64,000 nt of DNA from NCBI GenBank assembly GCA_016871495.1, contig VHDF01000004.1, positions 7,174-71,173 on the forward strand, in the 5' to 3' direction. A program made the translations under genes and the position numbers. Within the stretch, counting starts at the first letter, position 1; the number at the start of each line of letters is the position of its first letter. Under the pieces are notes generated by a model. That model made no database searches, was not told the origin of the DNA, and was given only the letters and a program-made list of their open reading frames with translations. The stretch is from Verrucomicrobiota bacterium. GTDB taxonomy: Bacteria; Verrucomicrobiota; Verrucomicrobiia; Limisphaerales; VHDF01. Positions 1,972 through 58,579 of the stretch are shown here, in pieces.

Positions 1972-2091
1972 TCCGGTCGTTGCGTGTTGTCGCGGAGCGT
2001 GTGAGGGTGCTCCCGCCTGCGTCGCGCGGCCTTTCGCCCCGTCTTTCTGCGACCCGTTTCAGCGACTGTCGGTGGCGAGGTGAGACTTGAG

Positions 2092-2432
2092 GTGGATCCA
2101 GAGGTTGGCGGTGACCGGGTTGTCGTGGTCACGCAGACAGCCCTGTCTGCTGTGGTGCAGGCTGCCCAGCCTGCGGGGCGACGAAGGGAACCAGGCCGCC
2201 TATTTCATGCACGGGACGCCCGGTGAGGACACCTGGCACAAACACAGAGGCAGGCGCGATGGTAGGCCGCGTGCCCTCACGCGGCAAACTGTCGCGGATT
2301 CAAGCTCAGTATGAATGATCCGGGCTGGGCGCGTGGAGAGCATGGATGGGCCTCGTTCTTCACCCGCCGGGCCGTCGGCGATACGGCAGGCTGGGCAGCC
2401 TGCGCCACACGACAGACCACTTCGGGATGCAC
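2092..2432 (+). mobile_element. MITE family B, copy B1 (full length, interrupted by nested element D1)
   Basis: Left end gtggatccagaggttggcggtgacc, right end cttcgggatgcac. Collinear with copy B3 except for a 129-bp insertion. Flanked by ggtgagacttg (2079-2089) and ggtgagaactg (2433-2443). Confidence 0.8.
2196..2324 (+). mobile_element. MITE family D, copy D1 (nested inside B1, right terminus diverged)
   Basis: About 129 bp, similar to 46943-47075 throughout (ccgcctatttca...ggtgaggacac...ggccgcgtgccctcacgcggca...attcaagctc). Confidence 0.75.
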
Positions 2433-2549
2433 GGTGAGAACTGGCACCTGCCCGGTTTCCGTTGACTTCAGCCGTGTGGCGCAACTAACGTTCAAAGGCC
2501 GTGGCCTTGTTCTCGTCGGGCTGAAAGGACGCAGTGCCGCGATCGAGTT

Positions 2550-4830: not shown

Positions 4831-4952
4831 CATTCCCCTTCCCTCAACACGAAATCGAGCGGGCACGCGCCCACCGATGGCGGATGTCGGCCCAGGCTGC
4901 AAAGTGGTGGTTCATCGGGTGGCAGCATCTCAAACCCAACTGAATCGAGAGA

Positions 4953-5210
4953 GTCATCCTGATCTTGGTTCGTGGCCGGGATTCCCCCCCTCCGTGTCTT
5001 GGTGCCTCCGTGAGAACAAGGGCAACCGGCGCGCGGACTTCAGCCCGTTTCGACGTGGAAGAACACCAAGCACGGGATATGACCCACGTTCTCGATCTTC
5101 GACGCTGAAGCGGCGTGAACGCCGCGGTCCGAGCCGTGATGGAGCAGTGACGAGCGGACTAGGAAAGCGAGGGATCTCACGGAGACACGAAGGCACGGAG
5201 AGGGGATGAC
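4953..5210 (+). mobile_element. MITE family C, copy C1 (full length, about 258 bp)
   Basis: Termini gtcatcc / ggatgac. The subterminal inverted repeat ccctccgtgtcttggtgcctccgtgaga (left) pairs with tctcacggagacacgaaggcacggagagg (right). Flanked by atcgagaga (4944-4952) and atcgagggc (5211-5219). Confidence 0.75.
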
Positions 5211-5220
5211 ATCGAGGGCG

Positions 5221-5333
5221 GTGCATTCAGAGGTTGTCGGTGACCGGGTTGTCCTGGTAACGCAGACAGCCCTGTCTGCTGTGTCGCAGGCTGCCCAGCC
5301 TGCGGGGCGACGTAGGGAACCAGGAGCGTGGGG
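5221..5333 (+). mobile_element. MITE family B, copy B2 (left half only)
   Basis: gtgcattcagaggttgtcggtgaccgggttgtcctggtaacgcagacagccctgtctgc... is collinear with the left arm of B3 and diverges after gggaaccagg. Confidence 0.75.
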
Positions 5334-25237: not shown

Positions 25238-25300
25238 AGACTTATTACGGGTTAGTCGAACGAGGCGGCAAGCAGTTTCACCGCTCCCTCAGAAAGGTCG

Positions 25301-25515
25301 GTGCATCCAGAGGTTTTCGGTGACCGGGTTGTCGTGGTAACGCAGACAGCCCTGTCTGCTGTTTCGCAGGCTGCCTGGCCTGCGGGGCGACGAAGGGAAC
25401 CAGGCGTGTGGAGAACAGGGCAGGGCCTCGTTCTTCACCCGCCGGGCCGACGGGCCGTCGGCGATACGGCAGGCTGGGCAGCCTGCGCCACACGACAGAC
25501 ATCTTCGGGATGCAC
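25301..25515 (+). mobile_element. MITE family B, copy B3 (intact reference copy, 215 bp)
   Basis: Termini gtgcatccagaggtt / cttcgggatgcac. Arms are complementary (caggctgcctggcctgc vs gcaggctgggcagcctg). Internal hairpin gcagacagccctgtctgc. Flanked by cagaaaggtc (25290-25299) and cagaaagctc (25518-25527). Confidence 0.85.
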
Positions 25516-25588
25516 GGCAGAAAGCTCGCCGTTGGGATGAGCGCCCACCATCGGAAACCCACACATGACGAAAAGACAGTCGGCTGGG

Positions 25589-26683: not shown

Positions 26684-26926
26684 AGCCAAGATCGAGTTGA
26701 ACCGGCGGATGAATTCTAAGCCGCCTCGTTCTTCGACACTCTTGCGACCCGCACCTTCGAGTTCTCCTGGCCGCGAAGGAAGTTCTGCGCGCCTTCGATG
26801 AGCAGGTGAAGCTGTTGTTCCAGTAAATCCACGTCAACCTCCACCCATCCCGTTCCTCGACCCCATTCTCACCGCTTGGGCTTTCGACCGGGAGGTTGAT
26901 GCATTGTGTCGTGCCTCTCCCGCCCA

Positions 26927-27056
26927 GTGCATCCCGATGTTGCCGGTGATGCAGGTAGGGCGCGTCCGTCCCGGCGCGCCCCCGGAGCATGATGTTTTGC
27001 ATCCCGTGGGCGGCGGGCTGGGACAGGCCCGCCCTACCAACAACATCGGGATACAC
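26927..27056 (+). mobile_element. MITE family A, copy A1 (130 bp)
   Basis: TIR gtgcatcccgatgttg / caacatcgggatacac. Flanked by tctcccgccc at 26916-26925 and 27059-27068. Confidence 0.9.
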
Positions 27057-27120
27057 GGTCTCCCGCCCCTCACGCCATTTTCACATTGCGGCTGCACGGG
27101 CCCCGAGCGACACTCCAGGC

Positions 27121-28647: not shown

Positions 28648-28812
28648 CGCGGACACACAGGCCTTCCCCCCCATTCGCGGCAAATTCCAACCCGTCGCCG
28701 ACGTCCAGGCTCAGACCCTCTGACCTTGAAGGGGGGGAAGGGTGGGGCGTGGAACGAAAAGGAGCCGCAATGAGGAGGTCTTGGATTTTTCGGAAGCGGC
28801 AGGAGCGAGGGA

Positions 28813-28950
28813 GTGATCCTGATCTTGATTCGTGACCGGGATTCCGTCCCTCCGTGTCTTGGTGCCTCCGTGAGAAACTTGGCCATCGGCGCGCGGGCTT
28901 CAGCCCGCTTCGACGTGGAACAACACCGAGCGCAGGGCATGAGCCGACGG
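28813..28950 (+). mobile_element. MITE family C, copy C2 (left part only)
   Basis: gtgatcctgatcttgattcgtgaccgggattccgtccctccgtgtcttggtgcctccgtgaga... is collinear with 4953-5090. The right arm is missing. Confidence 0.7.
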
Positions 28951-29067: not shown

Positions 29068-30552
29068 TCACAACGGACGCAAGATCGACTGTGGACGCAG
29101 ATAATCGAAGAAGGTTTCGGGGCTGTTGACGCCTCCACCCATGCCGCTCAGGTTGCAGCCGCCATACGGCACGCCGTGCGGAAACAAGTTGTGGGCGTTA
29201 ATCCAGCTGTTCCCCGCCACCATCGCTTCGGCGACGCGATTGGCGCGCTCCAAGTTTCGGCTCCAGACACTGTTGGCCAATCCGTAATGGGACCGGTTCA
29301 CGATTTCGACCGCCTCCTGCTCGTCGCGAAAACGAACGAGATACGCGACCGGACCGAAGATCTCCTCCCGGCACGCCACGTTGTCCGGCGAGCCGGTCAG
29401 GAGAGCGGGAGAGACGTAAAACCCTTTTTCATGGCCGGCCACGGTGGCGACTCCGCCTCGCAGAAGACACTGGGCTCCTTCCTTTTCACCCTTTTCCAGA
29501 TAACCCAGCACTCGATCCCGCTGCTTGGCGCTCACGACGGGACCCATCTGAGTCTCCGCGTCCCATTCATGGCCGATGCGGGTGGACCGCAAAGCTTTGG
29601 CTGCCCCGTCCGCCAGCGCGTCGAATATCTTTTCATGCACCAGCCACCGTGTGGCTGTGCAACAGACCTGGCCCGCGTTTAAGGTGATGGCGCCCGCGAG
29701 AGCTTTCGCGGTGGCTTCCACGTCGACGTCGTCAAACACCACCGCAGCCCCCTTGCCTCCCAGTTCCAGTTTCGCGGGAATCAAATTGCGTCCGGCGGCC
29801 TCGCCTACCAGGCGCCCCACTTCAGGCGAACCGGTAAAGGACATGCGCCGGAGCCCCGGATGCCTTGCCAGAGCCGCGCCCGCCGTTTCCCCCAATCCCG
29901 TCACAACATTGACCACACCTTTGGGAATGCCTACCTCCTCGGCCAACTTGGCAAAATACAGGGTCGAAAGCGGCGTGTCCTCGGCTGGTTTGATCACAAC
30001 CGTGTTTCCCGCGGCCAGCGCCGGTGCGATCCCCCACCCCACCAACAGCAAGGGAAAATTCCAGGGAAAAATGAATCCGCATGGACCGTAGGGTACTCGT
30101 ATGGATCGGGCCTCGAATCCGGAAACCGCAATGGGTTCCCGGCGACGCGCGTGGACGGAGAGATCGGCAAAATACCGCAACGTCGCGGAAACATTGGGGA
30201 TGTCTCCCTGCAGCGCCGCCCCGAACGGTTTCCCGACGTCCCAGGACTCGATCTGGGCGAGAACGGGCCGGCGCTGGTCCACCAAGTCGGCGAGCCGGTG
30301 CAGGAAAACCGCGCGTTCGTTGGCCGGCAATCCAGCCCAGCCACTCGCTCGAAAGGCATCCTGGGCGGACCGGACCGCTCGATCCACTTCTCGCTCGCCC
30401 CCGGCGGCGACGCGAGCGATCGGCTTGTCATCGCCGGGATCACGCGTCTCGAATGTTGCGCCACCCTCGGCCTCCACCCATTGTCCGCCGATGAACATGC
30501 GCAGGGGTTGATGCGAGAGGAATTCTGAGACTTCAGGAAGCATGGAGGTCAT
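29068..30552 (-). CDS. NAD(P)-dependent aldehyde dehydrogenase
   Basis: 494 aa. ELGGKGAAVVFDD and FTGSPEVGR motifs plus the catalytic-Cys region NAGQVCCTATR. Confidence 0.92.
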   Translation of the reverse strand: MTSMLPEVSEFLSHQPLRMFIGGQWVEAEGGATFETRDPGDDKPIARVAAGGEREVDRAVRSAQDAFRASGWAGLPANERAVFLHRLADLVDQRRPVLAQIESWDVGKPFGAALQGDIPNVSATLRYFADLSVHARRREPIAVSGFEARSIRVPYGPCGFIFPWNFPLLLVGWGIAPALAAGNTVVIKPAEDTPLSTLYFAKLAEEVGIPKGVVNVVTGLGETAGAALARHPGLRRMSFTGSPEVGRLVGEAAGRNLIPAKLELGGKGAAVVFDDVDVEATAKALAGAITLNAGQVCCTATRWLVHEKIFDALADGAAKALRSTRIGHEWDAETQMGPVVSAKQRDRVLGYLEKGEKEGAQCLLRGGVATVAGHEKGFYVSPALLTGSPDNVACREEIFGPVAYLVRFRDEQEAVEIVNRSHYGLANSVWSRNLERANRVAEAMVAGNSWINAHNLFPHGVPYGGCNLSGMGGGVNSPETFFDYLRPQSILRPL

Positions 30553-30640
30553 AGCAAAAACGGTTCGGGGTTAGGGCGACCACTCTCGACCCGATCTCCA
30601 CGAAAGGCAACGAAAAGCCTCGATCGCCGACCTTGGCCGG

Positions 30641-30769
30641 TTCATCCCGATGTTGCCGGTGATGCAGGTAGGGCGCGTCCGTCCCGGCGCGCCGCCGGAG
30701 CATGATGTTTTGCATCCAGCGGGCGGCGGGCTGGGACAGGCCCGCCCTACCAACAACATTGGGATACAC
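30641..30769 (+). mobile_element. MITE family A, copy A2
   Basis: Same 130-bp consensus. Flanked by the 19-nt direct repeat gaccttggccggttcatcc (30629-30647 / 30772-30790); the second copy doubles as the left end of B4. Confidence 0.9.
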
Positions 30770-30782
30770 GGGACCTTGGCCG

Positions 30783-30941
30783 GTTCATCCAGAGGTTGTC
30801 GGTGACCGGGTTGTCGTGGTCACGCAGACAGCCCTGTCTGCTGTGGTGCAGGCGGCCCAGCCTGCGGGGCGACGAAGTGAACCCGGCGCGTGGAGATCAT
30901 GGAAGGGCCTCGTTCTTCACCCGCCGGGCCGATGGGCCGAC
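30783..30941 (+). mobile_element. MITE family B, copy B4 (left arm plus centre, right arm lost)
   Basis: gttcatccagaggttgtcggtgaccgggttgtcgtggtcacgcagacagccctgtctgc... is collinear with B3 up to cacccgccgggccga. Confidence 0.8.
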
Positions 30942-31099
30942 GCGCACCGTTCAACCCGCCCCGCGTGTAGGCCTTGGCCCTGGCAACACCCATGTCCTTG
31001 CACCTGCCATGCCCCTGCGAAGACATATCCGAAACGGCGTGAACGCCGCGGTCCGAACGGCATCCTGCGAACGCGCCGGATCCACCGGGCCGGCCGGCG

Positions 31100-33541: not shown

Positions 33542-33626
33542 AACGATCGGCTGGGGTGTTGTGCGTCGATCCTAAGCAAATCCTTGGCGGCCCGAAAATC
33601 AAAAAGAACGCGCGAGATCCGTTCCG

Positions 33627-33756
33627 GCGCATCCCGATGTTGCCGGTGATGCAGGTAGGGCGCGTCCGTCCCGGCGCGCCGCCGGAGCATGATTTTTTGC
33701 ATCCAGTGGGCGGCGGGCTGGGACAGGCCCGCCCTACCAACAACATCGGGATACAC
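33627..33756 (+). mobile_element. MITE family A, copy A3
   Basis: Flanked by gatccgttc at 33616-33624 and 33759-33767. Confidence 0.9.
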
Positions 33757-33765
33757 GGGATCCGT

Positions 33766-35921: not shown

Positions 35922-36073
35922 GGAGAAGGAAAGGACCGGGATCGAGATGTTGACTTGAGGCGGAGACCACTGTGAGGCGCCCGAAGAAGCCGTGGGCTCG
36001 ACGATCAAGAGTATCTCTGACCCTCCGGAGTTCTGACCACGGAAAACCGACTTGTTGAATCGGCACCGGTCCC

Positions 36074-36203
36074 GTGTATCCCGATGTTGGTGGTAGGGCG
36101 GGCCTGTCCCAGCCCGCCGCCCGCTGGATGCAAAACATCATGCTCCGGCGGCGCGCCGGGACGGACGCGCCCTACCTGCATCACCGGCAACATCGGGATG
36201 CAC
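36074..36203 (-). mobile_element. MITE family A, copy A4 (inverted orientation)
   Basis: Flanked by cggcaccggtc at 36061-36071 and 36204-36214. Confidence 0.9.
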
Positions 36204-36443
36204 CGGCACCGGTCTCCGCTCAATTTTCCACCTTGCCAGGCGAACCGGAGACGCTACTCTCCCGTCCGCCTGGAAGCCGTGAGTGCGGTTTTCAATGAGG
36301 CTGAGAAAAGTCGTTCAACCAACAACCTAACCTCAACCCTCCGTTGCCTACGCAACGTTTGGTCCCGTTAGGGCAATGGAGTCTTCAAAGGGACCCTCGT
36401 CCCCCCAAAGCCTCCCGTCGTTACCGTTCATCATCATTCCGTT

Positions 36444-39986: not shown

Positions 39987-40052
39987 CAGATTTTCAACGG
40001 GCTGCGACAGGTCGAAGGACGACACCGCCGCGCTCCGGGGCAAAATGAGAAC
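39987..40052 (+). repeat. short repeat family E, copy E1
   Basis: cagattttcaacgggctgcgacaggtcgaaggacgacaccgccgcgctccggggcaaaatgagaac is about 80% identical to 58444-58509. Confidence 0.65.
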
Positions 40053-40341
40053 GACTGCGAAAGAGATAGAACAAAATACTTAGGGGCAGACATGTCGAGC
40101 ACCTCAGGAATCCCAACGGGATTCCGCCCCGAAGCCCAAGGTTGCGAGGAACGAGCGACCTTGGGTCACAGTTCGCAAATACAAACCAATCCCAACGGGG
40201 TTGTGACGAAACCCCATTTCCGTTTGGCGGAACCGCTTCTGCTGTGACGTGGATGGACCCTATGAACGGCGTGCCTCAAAGCACGAGGATCGATCGTCCG
40301 CGCCTTGCCAGGGAAGGATTGGAGTTTCGGCTCGGATTCGC

Positions 40342-46069: not shown

Positions 46070-46942
46070 GTGAACAAGGAACCTTTCAAACGCAAACTGC
46101 TGGATCTCGCGTTTTCAAACCACGGCTCTCAGTGGCTCAGGTTCCTTCGCGCCCATCGATGGAAGCCCGAACCGATGCGCCGGGTACATGCTTATGGAGT
46201 CGGACTTCCGCGTCCCGGCACTCATTCCATCGCCGGATTGTTGGGACGGTCCCTGAGGTCCGAACACGAACCTCTGGCGGCGACGACGCTCCGGGAAATC
46301 CGGTTATGGCAACAGGGGAAACGCACGGATGAAACACACCGAACCTTTCTCCTCCTTCGAGACCGCCATCTGGGGTTTGAGGTGGAGGCTTCCCACTTCT
46401 TGGTTTATTCGACCCCGATGCTGGCGGAATTGTTCCCGCGGGCGAGGTTCGTGTTCACGGTGAGGGAACCCGCGAGTTGGCTGGATTCGGAAATGACCCA
46501 GAATTTAGTGACCGACGCCTTGCCGGGCCGGGAATGGCGGGAATACGAAGAGCACCGTTACAGTGGCCGGGTGCGCCCGGGCGAAACGCCTGTTCTGCCC
46601 GCCAACGCGCGGCTATTCCCGCTGCAGGCTTATCTACGATACTGGGTTGATCACTGCGACCGCATCCTGAAGGCGGTGCCACCCGATCGCTTGCTGCTGG
46701 TCTTCACGCACGAACTGACACAAAGAGTGGACGAAGTGGCAAGGTTCGTTGGCGTCGCCCCGGACACCCTGGACCTTTCATCCAAGCAGTTGGACAGCAA
46801 TGAAAAGCGACGACGCGGAGACGCGGCGCAGGAGTTCGGACGGGATCGTGTGGTGCAAGGCATTCGCGAAATCTGCCTGCCCTGGATTCAAGCCCAACTC
46901 CCGGCCCTGATCCCGGCCTTGGCGGAACGCGGAGTCGCTTAG
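46070..46942 (+). CDS. sulfotransferase-family protein
   Basis: 290 aa. GLPRPGTHSI resembles the 5'-PSB loop (PKxGTT) and FTVREPASWLDS resembles the 3'-PB region. GTG start. Confidence 0.65.
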   Translation: MNKEPFKRKLLDLAFSNHGSQWLRFLRAHRWKPEPMRRVHAYGVGLPRPGTHSIAGLLGRSLRSEHEPLAATTLREIRLWQQGKRTDETHRTFLLLRDRHLGFEVEASHFLVYSTPMLAELFPRARFVFTVREPASWLDSEMTQNLVTDALPGREWREYEEHRYSGRVRPGETPVLPANARLFPLQAYLRYWVDHCDRILKAVPPDRLLLVFTHELTQRVDEVARFVGVAPDTLDLSSKQLDSNEKRRRGDAAQEFGRDRVVQGIREICLPWIQAQLPALIPALAERGVA

Positions 46943-47075
46943 CCCGCCTATTTCACGCACGAGACGCCCGGTGAGGACACCGGGCCTCCAAACAGAGAGG
47001 CCGTCGCGATTATAGGCCGCGTGCCCTCACGCGGCACGCTTTCCCGAATTCAAGCTCGAGTGTGAAATAGGCGGG
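46943..47075 (+). mobile_element. MITE family D, copy D2 (133 bp, perfect 14-bp TIR)
   Basis: cccgcctatttcac ... gtgaaataggcggg. Begins at the nucleotide after the sulfotransferase stop codon. Confidence 0.8.
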
Positions 47076-47672: not shown

Positions 47673-48000
47673 GCCTTGGTCTCGACCGTTCCGCCCCAGA
47701 CTTCAAGCAGGAAATGAGAGATCCAAACTGCGGGCGCCAGGGCCAACTGAAATCCTCGGAGCGAGGAGCCGACCCACTGCGGACCGGACTCGAACCGGCA
47801 GGCCGACGGCAGATTTTTGGCGGGCTATACAATGCAACGATGCCGGGGCGAACAGCCGCACACCGGGATGACGGGGGGTCGGTCAGAAAAGACGGTGTTC
47901 CGATCGGAACCTCATTTGTGTCCGTGCCGCCGCGATGACCCGCAACCGCCCACGCCGATTCGCACCTGCACTCGGTTCGAATCCTTTCATCCGCGTCTCC

Positions 48001-48139
48001 GTGTATCCCGATGTTGTTGGTAGGGCGGGCCTGTTCCAGCCCGCCGCCCACGGGATGCAAAACATCATGCTCCGGCGGCGCGCCGGGACGGACGCGCCCT
48101 ACCTGCATCACCGGCAACATCGGCAACATCGGGATACAC
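48001..48139 (-). mobile_element. MITE family A, copy A5 (139 bp, internal 9-bp duplication)
   Basis: Flanked by tccgcgtctcc (47990-48000) and tccgcgtttcc (48142-48152). cggcaacat is duplicated at 48112-48129. Confidence 0.9.
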
Positions 48140-48185
48140 CGTCCGCGTTTCCGAAGCAGCTTCATCGCTTGAGTAAATCACGACG

Positions 48186-50773: not shown

Positions 50774-53311
50774 ATGGTCAGGAATTTTGTTCACGCGTCG
50801 CGGAGGCGGTCCGCCTCGCAATTCCTCTGGTTCGTCGGCCTGGTGTTCGCCGTGGCACCCTTGCTGAGAGCCCAGTTCTCAGCGCTTCCCTTGCGTGTTT
50901 TCTCCGAAAACGTGCAGATGGGCGCCGAACCCCGCACCACGTTGGTCCTCGGCCGCGACGGCATGCTTTACGGAGCCACCCTGCTGGCGGGTGGCACGCT
51001 CAAAGGCACGCTTTTTCGCATGCGGACGGACGGAGGCGATTATCGTATCCTTCACCGATTCACCTCGACCGAGCCGGATCTTGGCTCGAGTCCCTACGGG
51101 CGGCTGCTCGAAGCCGGGGACGGGCATTTCTACGGCACCACCTACGAGGGAGGGCCCGCTAATCGTGGTGTCATTTATCGACTGGAACGCGGGACCTGGG
51201 TTTTCACCGTCTTGCACGCTTTCACGGGCGGAACCAACGACGCCGCCAAACCCTACGGAGGTTTGGTCGAGGGCAGTGACGGCGCACTCTACGGGACCAC
51301 ATTCCTGGGTGGCGCGTCCAACCGAGGATCCTTTTTCAGGATTCGCAAGGACGGCACGGGCTTCGCGGCGCTCAAGCATTTCAGCGATGCGCCGGGCGAC
51401 GCGTCGCAGCCCACATCGACATTGCTCAAGGGTTCCGACGGGCGATTCTACGGCACTTCCTATCTTGGCGGCGCGTCCAGCATTGGAACGGTGTTCCGCA
51501 TCCAAGAGGATGGTTCGGGCTTCACTCTTCTGCAAAGTTTCACCGGACAAGGCGGGGATGGATCCTATCCGTTCGGCGGCTTGATCGAAGGGGTCGATGG
51601 ATTGCTCTACGGCACGACCTCCGCGGGCGGCCAGAGTCAGTTTGGAACCCTTTTCAAGCTGGGAAAGGATGGTTCCGGCTACACCTTGTTGCATCGCTTC
51701 AACACTCTGGAGGCGGGTGGACATCAGCCCTACGGCGAGCTCTTCCAGGCCAGGAGCGGATTGTTGTATGGCACCACTGCGTTCGGGGGGACCAACGATC
51801 AAGGGACGGTGTTTCAAATTGCCACCAACGGCACTTCTTACATCATTCACCGGCGCTTTCAGGGCGGACTCGCTGATGGCGCCGTTTCTTACGCGGGGCT
51901 GGCGCAAGATGCAGACGGATGGTTGCACGGCGTCGCCGTGACCGGAGGATCCGTCGACTCGGGCCTGGCGTTTCGAATGCGGCCTGATGGTTCGGGTTAT
52001 TCGATCTCGCATCAATTCGCCGGCACCGAGGGGGAAGCAGCGAGCCCCTACACCGCCCTGATCGAGGGGCGGGACGGAATCCTTTACGGAACGACCTTCC
52101 AAGGCGGCCACACCAATTTGGGCACCATTTTCCGAGTCAATCGAGACGGTGGAGATTACCGCATCTTGCACAGCTTCAGCGGTCCGGATGGGTCACAGCC
52201 CTACGCTGGGGTCATCGAAACCCGGGACGGATTCCTGTTCGGTGCCGCCGGGGGCGGAGGTCAGCGCAACGCGGGAACCCTTTTTCGACTCCACAAGGAT
52301 GGATCGGGATTCGCGGTCTTGAAACATTTCGAGGGCACCGTCCAGGACGGCATGATCCCTTTCGGGCGGTTGCTCGAAGCCGACGACGGCATGATCTATG
52401 GCACCACCTCGGGCGACGTGGGCACTGCAAACTACGGCACTTTGTTCAGGCTGCGCCCGGACGGTTCAGCCTACCAGGTATTGCGAACGTTCTCCGGCAC
52501 CGGAGGCGGCGGAACACAGCCGTTCGGCGGTCTCGTGCAGGGACCAGGCGGCTGGCTCTATGGCACCACCGCCTACCGGGATGCCACCAATAACGGGACG
52601 ATCTTTCGTGTAGGCAAAGACGGATCCGGCTTCAGCACCCTTCATGCCTTTGGAGATCGTCCGGAGGATGGAACCTTTCCGTTCCACGGACTCACTCTGG
52701 CTTCCGACGGCTTCCTCTATGGCACCACGTTTTCGGGAGGTTTGACCCAGCACGGCACGATTTTTCGGATCCGCCCCAGCAGCGACAATTACGAAGTGCT
52801 GCACCGCTTCCGCGGGGGGCCGGTCGATGGATCACTCCCCTCTGCGAACGCAGGCTTGGTCGAGGGCAAGGATGGGGCGCTCTACGGAGTGACTTACAGC
52901 GGAGGAGTATCCAATCTCGGAACCGTTTACCGCCTGGCCAAGGGCGGTGGACCGGTGTCCATCCTTACGCATTTCACGGGCAACACGAGAGCCGGAGCTC
53001 AGCCCTATGGTGGGCTGACGATCGCTCGGGACGGTTTGATCTATGGCACGACGCATAGCGGCGCGGCCGGATGCGGAGCTTTGTTTGTGCTGGGGCCGGA
53101 AGCCACGCTGGCGTTTTCGCCACCGTCAAACGTCAGGTTGCTTGGACCGAACGGTCGGCGATTCTCCCTGCAGACCTCGGAAGATTTATCGAATCCGAAC
53201 GGTTGGCGCTCCCTGAGCGAACTCACCATCATTGAGGGAGTCGCCCTTTACTCGGACCCCGCGGCGAACGGTATCTCCCAGCGATTCTATCGCGCCGTGT
53301 GGAAACCGTGA
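50774..53311 (+). CDS. GloVer (Gloeobacter/Verrucomicrobia) tandem-repeat protein
   Basis: 845 aa. About 14 tandem ~47-aa units of the form LYGTT..GG...GT(I/L/V)FR...DGSG..(V/I)LH.F.G. Signal-like N-terminus. The tail ends QRFYRAVWKP. Confidence 0.88.
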   Translation: MVRNFVHASRRRSASQFLWFVGLVFAVAPLLRAQFSALPLRVFSENVQMGAEPRTTLVLGRDGMLYGATLLAGGTLKGTLFRMRTDGGDYRILHRFTSTEPDLGSSPYGRLLEAGDGHFYGTTYEGGPANRGVIYRLERGTWVFTVLHAFTGGTNDAAKPYGGLVEGSDGALYGTTFLGGASNRGSFFRIRKDGTGFAALKHFSDAPGDASQPTSTLLKGSDGRFYGTSYLGGASSIGTVFRIQEDGSGFTLLQSFTGQGGDGSYPFGGLIEGVDGLLYGTTSAGGQSQFGTLFKLGKDGSGYTLLHRFNTLEAGGHQPYGELFQARSGLLYGTTAFGGTNDQGTVFQIATNGTSYIIHRRFQGGLADGAVSYAGLAQDADGWLHGVAVTGGSVDSGLAFRMRPDGSGYSISHQFAGTEGEAASPYTALIEGRDGILYGTTFQGGHTNLGTIFRVNRDGGDYRILHSFSGPDGSQPYAGVIETRDGFLFGAAGGGGQRNAGTLFRLHKDGSGFAVLKHFEGTVQDGMIPFGRLLEADDGMIYGTTSGDVGTANYGTLFRLRPDGSAYQVLRTFSGTGGGGTQPFGGLVQGPGGWLYGTTAYRDATNNGTIFRVGKDGSGFSTLHAFGDRPEDGTFPFHGLTLASDGFLYGTTFSGGLTQHGTIFRIRPSSDNYEVLHRFRGGPVDGSLPSANAGLVEGKDGALYGVTYSGGVSNLGTVYRLAKGGGPVSILTHFTGNTRAGAQPYGGLTIARDGLIYGTTHSGAAGCGALFVLGPEATLAFSPPSNVRLLGPNGRRFSLQTSEDLSNPNGWRSLSELTIIEGVALYSDPAANGISQRFYRAVWKP

Positions 53312-58443: not shown

Positions 58444-58509
58444 CAGATTTTTCAACGTGCTGCGGCTGGTCGAAAGACGACCAGCCGCGCTCCGGGGCAA
58501 AATGAGAAC
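58444..58509 (+). repeat. short repeat family E, copy E2 (perfect 11-bp-stem hairpin)
   Basis: cagatttttcaacgtgctgcggctggtcgaaagacgaccagccgcgctccggggcaaaatgagaac. The stem is gcggctggtcg / cgaccagccgc. Confidence 0.65.
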
Positions 58510-58579
58510 TCCTGTTTCTGCACAGTAACTCATTGAATCCTAATCCCCACAATGCCACCTTCCAACGCATCCCGATGCT

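Follow-up and report, generated by a model that had tools for sequence, protein, structure and literature searches.

In this study, we analysed a 64,000-nucleotide stretch of DNA from a Verrucomicrobiota bacterium (GenBank assembly GCA_016871495.1, contig VHDF01000004.1, positions 7,174 to 71,173; hereafter the window), in which small repeats of the families A, B and C sit between genes. With a probability that we put at roughly 0.75, A, B and, more distantly, C are miniature inverted-repeat transposable elements (MITEs) bearing the ~24-nt ends of a 2.2-kb, two-gene ISKra4-like (p-MULT 4) element, which is widespread in Verrucomicrobiota and inserts at a fixed distance from a promoter-like signal, sometimes in stacks. 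The A and B repeats are MITEs, because they combine inverted tips, hairpin interiors and an intergenic position with locus-specific 9-bp duplications. The MITEs and the autonomous copies have the same ends and are flanked by 9-bp duplications, and the autonomous copies encode proteins of recognisable families.

The families were delimited by repeat finding and alignments. Family A comprises five copies of 134 bp each (143 bp in A5) with 93-98% mutual identity, family B two full copies of 219 bp (B1 and B3) and two partial ones (B2 and B4), and family C two copies of ~134 bp that are 85% identical, their similarity and recognisable inverted end ceasing at ~5084 and ~28945. An earlier note on this DNA had given lengths of 130, ~215 and ~258 bp, which are corrected here, the figure for C having been clearly off; its statement that the three interiors are mutually unrelated was borne out by the alignments. 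The interior of A forms a long, imperfect, GC-rich hairpin (-44 kcal/mol as DNA, z = -4.96). At 134, 219 and ~134 bp, the elements fall within the size of non-coding MITEs (< ~500 bp), and none of A, B and C contains an open reading frame (ORF) above chance or shows similarity to the transposase or to ORF1 of the autonomous element. The window, with a G+C content of ~60%, contains no transfer RNA gene or Rfam match, and no Rfam family covers the repeats. The genome is a freshwater one: the window matches a contig of a Lake Tanganyika metagenome at 100% DNA identity.

The left ends of A (GTGCATCCCGATGTTGCCGGTGA) and B (GTGCATCCAGAGGTTGTCGGTGA) are identical at 20 of 23 positions, or at 21 of 24 with the preceding G, the count that had been reported before. 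A degenerate 23-mer searched with <=3 mismatches matched the window nine times (0.00 expected), every time at the end of an element, while the core ATCCNGANNTTG occurred 13 times (0.73 expected); 11 of these occurrences are A or B ends and the remaining two mark the exact start of the C1/C2 similarity. A profile constructed from 114 termini found all A and B ends (E 1e-6 to 0.02) but missed those of C. The loose relationship of C to A and B that had been suggested is thus seen in the core at the C starts, though not by the profile, and is real but weak. The terminal inverted repeats are CGGTGCATCCCGATGTTGCCGGT and CCGTGTATCCCGATGTTGTTGGT in A and CGGTGCATCCAGAGGTTGTCGGT and CCGTGCATCCCGAAGATGTC in B, and are imperfect in C; their consensus, ~24 nt long, is 5'-C(G/C)GTGCATCC-N4-G(T/G)TTGT(T/C)GGT. 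Conservation stops at about position 24-25, and 80 of 102 tips begin with C. An element spans the terminal C to the terminal G, one tip reading CGGTGCATCC and the other CCGTG(C/T)ATCC; the labelling of the left tip as CGG and the right as CCG is not absolute, as in the autonomous copy at locus L181 the CCG tip adjoins ORF1. A fourth small repeat, family D (~120-125 nt, 84-86% identical), was found at 2193-2317, within B1, and at 46941-47057. Its inverted repeat, CCCGCCTATTTCAC...GTGAAATAGGCGGG, has no relation to the A/B/C tip and therefore provides an internal control: the terminus is not common to every small repeat in the window. The D copy splits B1 at the point where the similarity of B2 stops.

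The copies in the window are as follows; flanks are numbered outward from the tip, with the duplication at positions 1-9.
26925..27058, plus strand: A1; duplication TCTCCCGCC, 9/9; TTGCGG at position 28 on the CCG-tip side (27086-27091).
30638..30771, plus strand: A2, a 134-bp MITE with tips CGGTTCATCC... and ...GGGATACACGG; 97-98% identity to the other A copies; duplication 9/9.
33625..33758, plus strand: A3; duplication GATCCGTTC, 9/9; without TTG at position 27/28, the closest being at 23.
36072..36205, minus strand: A4; duplication GCACCGGTC, 9/9; TTGCCA at 36233-36238, position 28 from the CGG tip, upstream of rpsA (36444).
47999..48141, minus strand: A5, 143 bp; target duplication TCCGCGTCT/TCCGCGTTT, 8/9; TTGAGT at position 28 (48169-48174).
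2090..2434, plus strand: B1, a B copy with an unrelated ~125-nt family D insert (~2193-2317); duplication 7/9; TTGACT at position 28 from the CCG tip (2462-2467).
5219..5322, plus strand: B2, a truncated B copy consisting of the CGG tip and ~105 nt.
25299..25517, plus strand: B3, full 219 bp; duplication CAGAAAGGT/CAGAAAGCT, 8/9; TTGCCG at position 28 from the CGG tip (25266-25271, minus strand).
30781..30969, plus strand: B4, a degenerate and older member of B retaining the CGG tip; similarity to B over ~165 nt (89% to B3), ceasing at ~30945.
4951..5084, plus strand: C1, ~134 bp; left tip GAGTCATCCTGATCTTGG, right end an imperfect inverted copy.
28811..28945, plus strand: C2, 85% identical to C1.

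Two peculiarities of the tips were observed. The outer 10 nt of the CGG tips carry 8 substitutions in nine copies (A1, A2, A3, A5, B1, B2 and B4 being affected), compared with none in seven copies of the CCG tips (Fisher p ~0.01), and the interior of A departs from its consensus by ~1.5%. In the CGG-tip repeat of A5 (48117-48134, minus strand), CGATGTTGC stands in tandem twice (9 nt), which accounts for the length of 143 instead of 134 bp.

All five A copies are flanked by 9-bp direct repeats whose sequence differs from copy to copy (four at 9/9, one at 8/9), and the full B copies by duplications of the same length (B3 8/9, B1 7/9). No duplication was detected for C1 or C2 at any offset tried, or beside the truncated B2. 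The claim that all the families show flanking duplications is thus valid for A and the full copies of B and fails for C and B2; a comparison of duplication lengths, which had also been proposed, gives 9 bp for both A and B and nothing visible for C. When the window and the fetched loci are taken together, 23 unique elements, small and autonomous, have duplications matching at 8-9 of 9 positions, and 9-bp duplications were recorded at A1-A5, B1 and B3 and at 16 further unique sites elsewhere. No empty site was found by exact-protein look-ups, the contigs returned being identical to the window or broken at the repeat.

The scan of a genome collection was performed with a 17-mer containing three degenerate positions and was too loose, yielding mostly chance matches; Verrucomicrobiota, including Akkermansia, were over-represented in it (~22 of 120 loci among the matches listed). 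The Verrucomicrobiota loci have the tip GGTGCATCCCGA(A/T)GTTGT(T/C)GGT followed by lineage-specific interiors, often as inverted pairs 145-200 bp apart. In metagenomes the exact 23-mer was present at 47 loci, most of them small inverted pairs, with three pairs at a distance of 2.17-2.2 kb. Viral contigs, when scanned, gave one uninformative match.

The autonomous element has the same tips as the MITEs, is 2193-2272 bp long and contains two ORFs overlapping by 4 nt, a layout that was constant in six further loci. ORF1 (270-292 aa) has a Pfam DUF4338/DruA domain (E = 5.5e-25), and DUF4338 has been interpreted as a GNAT-like fold (PMC10853773). ORF2 (414 aa), presumed to be a DDE transposase of the prokaryotic Mutator-like kind, matches the NCBIfam ISKra4 transposase model NF033572 over model positions 25-420 of 422 (E = 1.7e-46, 159 bits), the runner-up models being ISLre2 (68 bits) and ISH6 (48 bits), and it also matches Pfam UPF0236. 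At least 848 homologues of the transposase were found at E ≤ 1e-20, mostly on ~2.2-kb contigs, as expected of a repeat assembling on its own. The ends have the features of the ISKra4 family, namely ~24-nt repeats, a terminal C and 9-bp direct repeats. Clean duplications of autonomous copies were read from copies embedded in longer contigs: ATCCCCGCG, GGTCAGGGC and AGGCAGGAG at L175, L177 and L179 (all 9/9), and GCCGCGCGG/GCCGTGCGG at L181 (8/9). The check suggested in the earlier note, to seek an autonomous insertion sequence (IS) by its terminal inverted repeat, thus led to 2.2-kb elements in relatives with the same ends and 9-bp duplications. The similarity between the window MITEs and the autonomous copies is limited to the ~23 terminal nt.

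Searches for solved structural relatives gave none for ORF1 or for the transposase. A role of ORF1 in the Druantia defence system, suggested by the domain shared with DruA, was ruled out, as ORF1 has no PADLOC match and its sole neighbour within the element is the transposase. The right flanks of two autonomous copies on short metagenome contigs (L147, 2311-2690; L156, 5185-5827) are identical and resemble by eye the end of a ribosomal RNA (rRNA) operon (5S plus the 3' end of 23S), and their left flanks differ. These contigs are probably chimeric across repeats, the alternative being that the element adjoins several rRNA operons.

A promoter-like signal was found at a fixed distance from the tips. 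TTG begins at position 28 in 21 of the 79 unique CGG-tip flanks, with 7 more at position 27 (background ~1.4 per position), and in 6 of the 36 CCG-tip flanks (background 0.64). When counting was limited to unique elements with both flanks present and a duplication of at least 7/9 (26 elements), 15 had the box beside one tip and not the other (binomial p = 1.7e-11). In the window six of seven elements have it (p = 8e-7), on the CCG-tip side in A1 and B1 and on the CGG-tip side in A2, A4, A5 and B3, with A3 lacking it; the box starts exactly 18 nt past the duplication, that is, at position 28 from the tip. Aligned on TTG, the sites read (C/G)TTGC.., followed 16-18 nt on by an A/T-rich hexamer. 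At this spacing the best match to TATAAT averaged 3.09 against 2.07 in controls, and the A+T fraction of the hexamer was 0.58 against 0.44, each value above all 20000 resamples. Textbook promoter sites are present at L143 (TTGACA-N17-TATTAT), L135 (TTGCAA-N17-TATAGT) and L127 (TTGACA), and boxes in the window face adjoining gene starts, those of an aldehyde dehydrogenase gene (A2) and rpsA (A4). As judged from these alignments, the position-28 signal appears to fit the promoter-directed insertion reported for the ISKra4 group.

The arrangement of A2 and B4 had attracted attention in the earlier note, since a 19-nt string precedes both and both carry the same variant terminus. Both observations were reproduced: the 19-mer GACCTTGGCCGGTTCATCC lies at 30629-30647 and 30772-30790, A2 and B4 (start 30781) are separated by just 9 nt, and the two share the variant GTTCATCC. 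The conclusion drawn from them, that the event involved the shared terminus itself, did not hold, because the 19-mer is fully accounted for by a 9-nt duplication followed by the 10-nt tip that A and B share, which makes recombination at the terminus unnecessary. The features at this locus, and a comparable one beside A4, are the following.
30605..30610, minus strand: TTGCCT box, 18 nt past the A2 duplication, pointing to the aldehyde dehydrogenase gene 29068-30552 (minus strand).
30629..30637, no strand: GACCTTGGC, left duplication of A2.
30772..30780, no strand: GACCTTGGC, middle copy, the right duplication of A2, abutting the first base of B4.
30970..30978, no strand: GGCCTTGGC, possible third copy of the 9-mer (8/9), candidate right duplication of B4 (0.034 expected in 120 nt; moderate support).
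36032..36062, minus strand: B-type CGG-tip-like remnant of ~30 nt (CGATTCAACAAGTCGGTTTTCCGTGG...), abutting the A4 duplication; in repeat finding, the match between A2 and A4 runs on to 171 nt at 91%.

The order at the first locus is thus TTGCCT (minus strand), an 18-nt gap, GACCTTGGC, A2, GACCTTGGC, B4 and GGCCTTGGC. Most likely, to judge by this layout, A2 reused a 9-bp site earlier used by B4, beside the same promoter-like box. A2 would be the younger of the two, because it is 97-98% identical to the other A copies, and B4 the older, because it is 89% identical to B3, loses similarity at ~30945 and has no second tip. The layout recurs before rpsA as TTGCCA, an 18-nt gap, a 9-mer, A4, the 9-mer and the B-like remnant, the last of which was missed by the terminus profile. 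The possibility that A4 and its neighbour are a duplicate of A2 and B4 was rejected, since the 9-mers GACCTTGGC and GACCGGTGC are each internally identical, which could not arise by divergence after duplication; with its own internally identical 9-mer, each locus represents an independent event. The G-to-T change shared by A2 and B4 has a chance of ~3% of arising coincidentally at the same base, given the substitution rate of the tips; the simplest alternative to such chance would be short-patch gene conversion between direct repeats 143 nt apart. At L143 (226-258) and L103 (3411-3439), a degenerate tip lies 9 nt and 5 nt, respectively, from the tip of an intact element, and stacking may not be peculiar to the window.

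These results are consistent with the following mechanism. A transposase supplied in trans would bind the ends and move the MITEs, tips of the CGGTGCATCCCGATGTTG type being in this model the ends of the intact parent, which carries DUF4338 plus the transposase. Transposition would probably proceed by copy-out/paste-in through a circle, as described for the superfamily, the target being cut with a 9-bp stagger. Insertion would be guided by the promoter-like signal, consisting of the (C/G)TTGC box, which starts 18 nt past the 9-mer, and the A/T-rich hexamer 16-18 nt on. A second element drawn by the same signal would cut the same 9 bp again, because the distance to the signal is fixed, and would land between the promoter and the resident element, giving the order 9-mer, new element, 9-mer, old element, 9-mer. 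Young A2 would in this way have become stacked next to old B4 (30629-30978), and A4 likewise next to the decayed B-like tip before rpsA.

The proposal that one transposase mobilises several families gains from the autonomous IS found in relatives, with these ends, the 9-bp geometry and an ISKra4-like transposase, and loses from the existence of several sublineages, none of which was recovered from this genome. For A and B a single enzyme is likely but unproven on the evidence of the tips; it is plausible because the positions separating A from B (10-14 of the tip) also vary from one end to the other within individual autonomous copies (CCCGAAG and CCTGGAG in L147; CCGCCGG and CCGGAGG in L179), which argues for their being tolerated. 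C may be a relative of older origin, or it may depend on a more distant enzyme. If instead A, B and C were each moved by a different IS sublineage, their terminal similarity would reflect common ancestry of the transposases, a possibility to which we give well under even odds. It is in keeping with the split of the autonomous sublineages at 78-85% nucleotide and 57-95% amino-acid identity, with the L179 end CGGTGCATCCGGAGGTTGTCGGTAG, which at 91% over 23 nt is closer to the left tip of B than the L175 type is, and with C, which departs at core positions and escapes the terminus profile. But the other tip of B (CCGTGCATCCCGAAG...) is of the L175 type, so that B is no clean derivative of L179, and the 9-bp stagger and the position-28 signal are common to both families. 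That the repeats are not mobile at all, being host-selected structured RNAs or regulatory palindromes of the repetitive extragenic palindrome/bacterial interspersed mosaic element (REP/BIME) type that share a protein-binding end, is hardly credible. A stable hairpin, a strictly intergenic, promoter-proximal position and a tip conserved phylum-wide would suit such a role, but the 9-bp duplications are locus-specific at 23 independent sites and not part of a conserved motif, identical tips and duplications are found on transposase-carrying elements, and the interiors are wholly different between lineages and lack an Rfam match. No tetranucleotide-tagged REP structure is present, and elements of 134-219 bp with 9-bp duplications differ from REP/BIME palindromes, which are 20-40 bp long and have no target duplication.

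Similar weighing applies to the signal and to the stacks. The TTG at position 28 could belong not to a promoter but to a motif of DNA sequence or shape that the transposase or the DUF4338 protein recognises directly. Strong conservation is limited to TTG and the preceding C/G, the consensus promoter scan was negative at two window sites and the distance is unlike that of the published promoter-targeting relatives; even so, we consider this unlikely, given the significant enrichment of a -10-like A/T-rich hexamer at 16-18 nt, the textbook promoters at L143, L135 and L127, the window boxes that face gene starts, and the promoter targeting documented for the enzyme family (PMC3942029). We are more doubtful still that the A2/B4 junction arose from an event on the shared terminus, either recombination of an A tip with a B tip, whether homologous or mediated by the transposase, or insertion directed to an inverted repeat already in place. 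For two of the five A copies a B-type tip stands exactly 9 nt away, the rare T variant is common to A2 and B4, and autonomous-type tips and the second tip of A have TTG at 19-21, which is position 28 as seen from a neighbour 9 nt off, so that a resident tip could mimic the signal. However, the 9 nt flanking A2 form an ordinary duplication whose length is that found at every other copy, genuine gene-proximal boxes occupy position 28 on the opposite flank of A2 (TTGCCT) and of A4 (TTGCCA), the TTG of B4's own tip is at position 25 from A2 and not 28, and recombination between tips would not regenerate the 9-mer on both sides.

Several observations count against the interpretation of the repeats as MITEs of a promoter-seeking, ISKra4-like parent that sometimes stack. 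Neither a transposase gene nor a DUF4338 gene lies in the 64-kb window, and from the source genome, too, none was recovered; mobilisation in trans is thus what we infer there. The ORF2 score of 159 bits is below the NCBIfam ISKra4 cut-off of 205 bits. The autonomous copies at L147, L155 and L156, all on short metagenome contigs, have no duplication, probably owing to chimeric assembly across the repeat or to an rRNA-operon flank. The TTG box is missing in 11 of the 26 elements, a generic sigma-70 consensus scan called no promoter at the A2 or A4 sites, and the signal lies 27 nt from the tip, compared with the 15-17 nt reported for TnGBS, ISLre2 and ISKra4, and with 13-17 nt as the range for promoter targeting in the ISKra4 group (PMC3942029). 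At the junction, the third 9-mer at B4 matches at only 8 of 9 positions (~0.03 expected by chance), the second tip of B4 is not recognisable, and the G-to-T change shared by A2 and B4 is not predicted by stacking.

ISKra4 belongs to the prokaryotic Mutator-like superfamily, as p-MULT 4 (Guerillot et al. 2014; PMC3942029), whose members end in inverted repeats 18-39 bp long, the terminal cytosine of which is conserved, are flanked by direct repeats of 8 or 9 bp, form circular intermediates and occasionally carry additional genes of unknown function. Some ISKra4-group elements, like TnGBS and ISLre2, insert at a fixed distance upstream of sigma-A promoters, which in the ISKra4 group are found on either side, where the two repeats of an element are nearly identical (PMC3942029). 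The element described here resembles this group in a transposase homologous over its full length, in its ~24-nt inverted repeats with terminal C, in its 9-bp direct repeats and in a fixed-distance promoter-like signal on either side, and some members of the group also have an extra gene of unknown function. It differs in scoring below the NCBIfam family cut-off, in the constant presence of the DUF4338/DruA-domain ORF as partner, in its host, as Verrucomicrobiota are not in the host list of PMC3942029, in a signal 27 nt from the tip instead of ~16, and in its abundant MITE derivatives, of which PMC3942029 describes none (the term 'MITE' does not occur in it). For TnGBS and ISLre2 (p-MULT 3), the insertion point lies 15-17 bp before the -35 box of a sigma-A promoter (PMC3942029). 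They share with the present element an apparently promoter-directed insertion at a fixed distance, a Mutator-like enzyme, presumably of the DDE type here as well, and 8-9-bp repeats. They belong to another transposase clade and insert in a single orientation, whereas both orientations occur here, with a weak bias (signal in 28/79 CGG-tip and 6/36 CCG-tip flanks; p = 0.055), and the distance here is about one helical turn longer.

Bacterial MITEs moved in trans by a parent IS include the Correia, RUP and cyanobacterial families, and in eukaryotes one transposase serves several MITE families in the cases of mPing/Ping/Pong and Stowaway/mariner. The window repeats are like these in being short, non-coding and hairpin-forming, in sharing only inverted repeats and duplication length with the parent, and in the coexistence of unrelated interiors. 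They are unlike them in the ISKra4-like parent, the phylum-wide tip and the promoter-proximal, reusable sites, which result in head-to-tail stacks. IS30 and IS911 can insert next to resident inverted repeats, and there, too, a new copy abuts an existing end a few bp off. The spacing here, in contrast, equals the duplication length, and the promoter-like box on the far side would explain the position without recognition of a resident end. A literature search found no paper on this terminus or on MITEs of this family.

The kind of element is already known, as MITEs of an ISKra4-like, promoter-seeking IS, and is documented newly here; what is modestly novel is the phylum-wide tip, the constant DUF4338 partner gene, the 27-nt distance between tip and signal, and stacking by reuse of the target site. 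Nothing known about MITEs is overturned. The two-gene ISKra4-like element would give a concrete parent to intergenic repeats of Verrucomicrobiota that had lacked an explanation, those of the gut bacterium Akkermansia among them, and promoter-directed insertion, so far described for full-length Mutator-like elements, would extend to miniature derivatives and a new phylum. The rule of a TTG box 18 nt past the duplicated 9-mer could be used for promoter prediction and for reading the order of insertions. A far more speculative scheme, which we think quite improbable, would have the DUF4338/DruA-domain (GNAT-like) partner steer the transposase to RNA-polymerase-bound promoters one helical turn farther than in TnGBS/ISLre2; the MITEs, which throughout Verrucomicrobiota, Akkermansia included, would always lie 27 nt upstream of a -35 box, would be modular upstream promoter elements co-opted by the host, and the reusable sites would give ordered stacks recording insertion history.

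Some further observations were made. Contigs from metagenome-assembled genomes (MAGs) and metagenomes at L005, L062, L076, L103, L004, L123, L124, L126 and L152 end ~136-139 nt inside the element, which points to these repeats as a systematic cause of short-read assembly breaks in Verrucomicrobiota. Two contigs labelled as a Bifidobacteriaceae MAG (L012 and L031) carry an Akkermansia-type element, with the tip and the GGTTGTCGCGCTGCGACAACC interior, which suggests that they are mis-binned Akkermansia DNA. Unrelated to the MITE families, a 31-nt direct repeat (GCCGCGCTCCGGGGCAAAATGAGAAC..) occurs in the window at 40027-40057 and 58484-58514, its copies being 94% identical and 18 kb apart. Finally, six diverged coding repeats of ~61 nt, spaced at multiples of ~159 nt, lie at 51083-52409 inside an 845-aa ORF (50774-53311) and probably represent a repeated protein domain.

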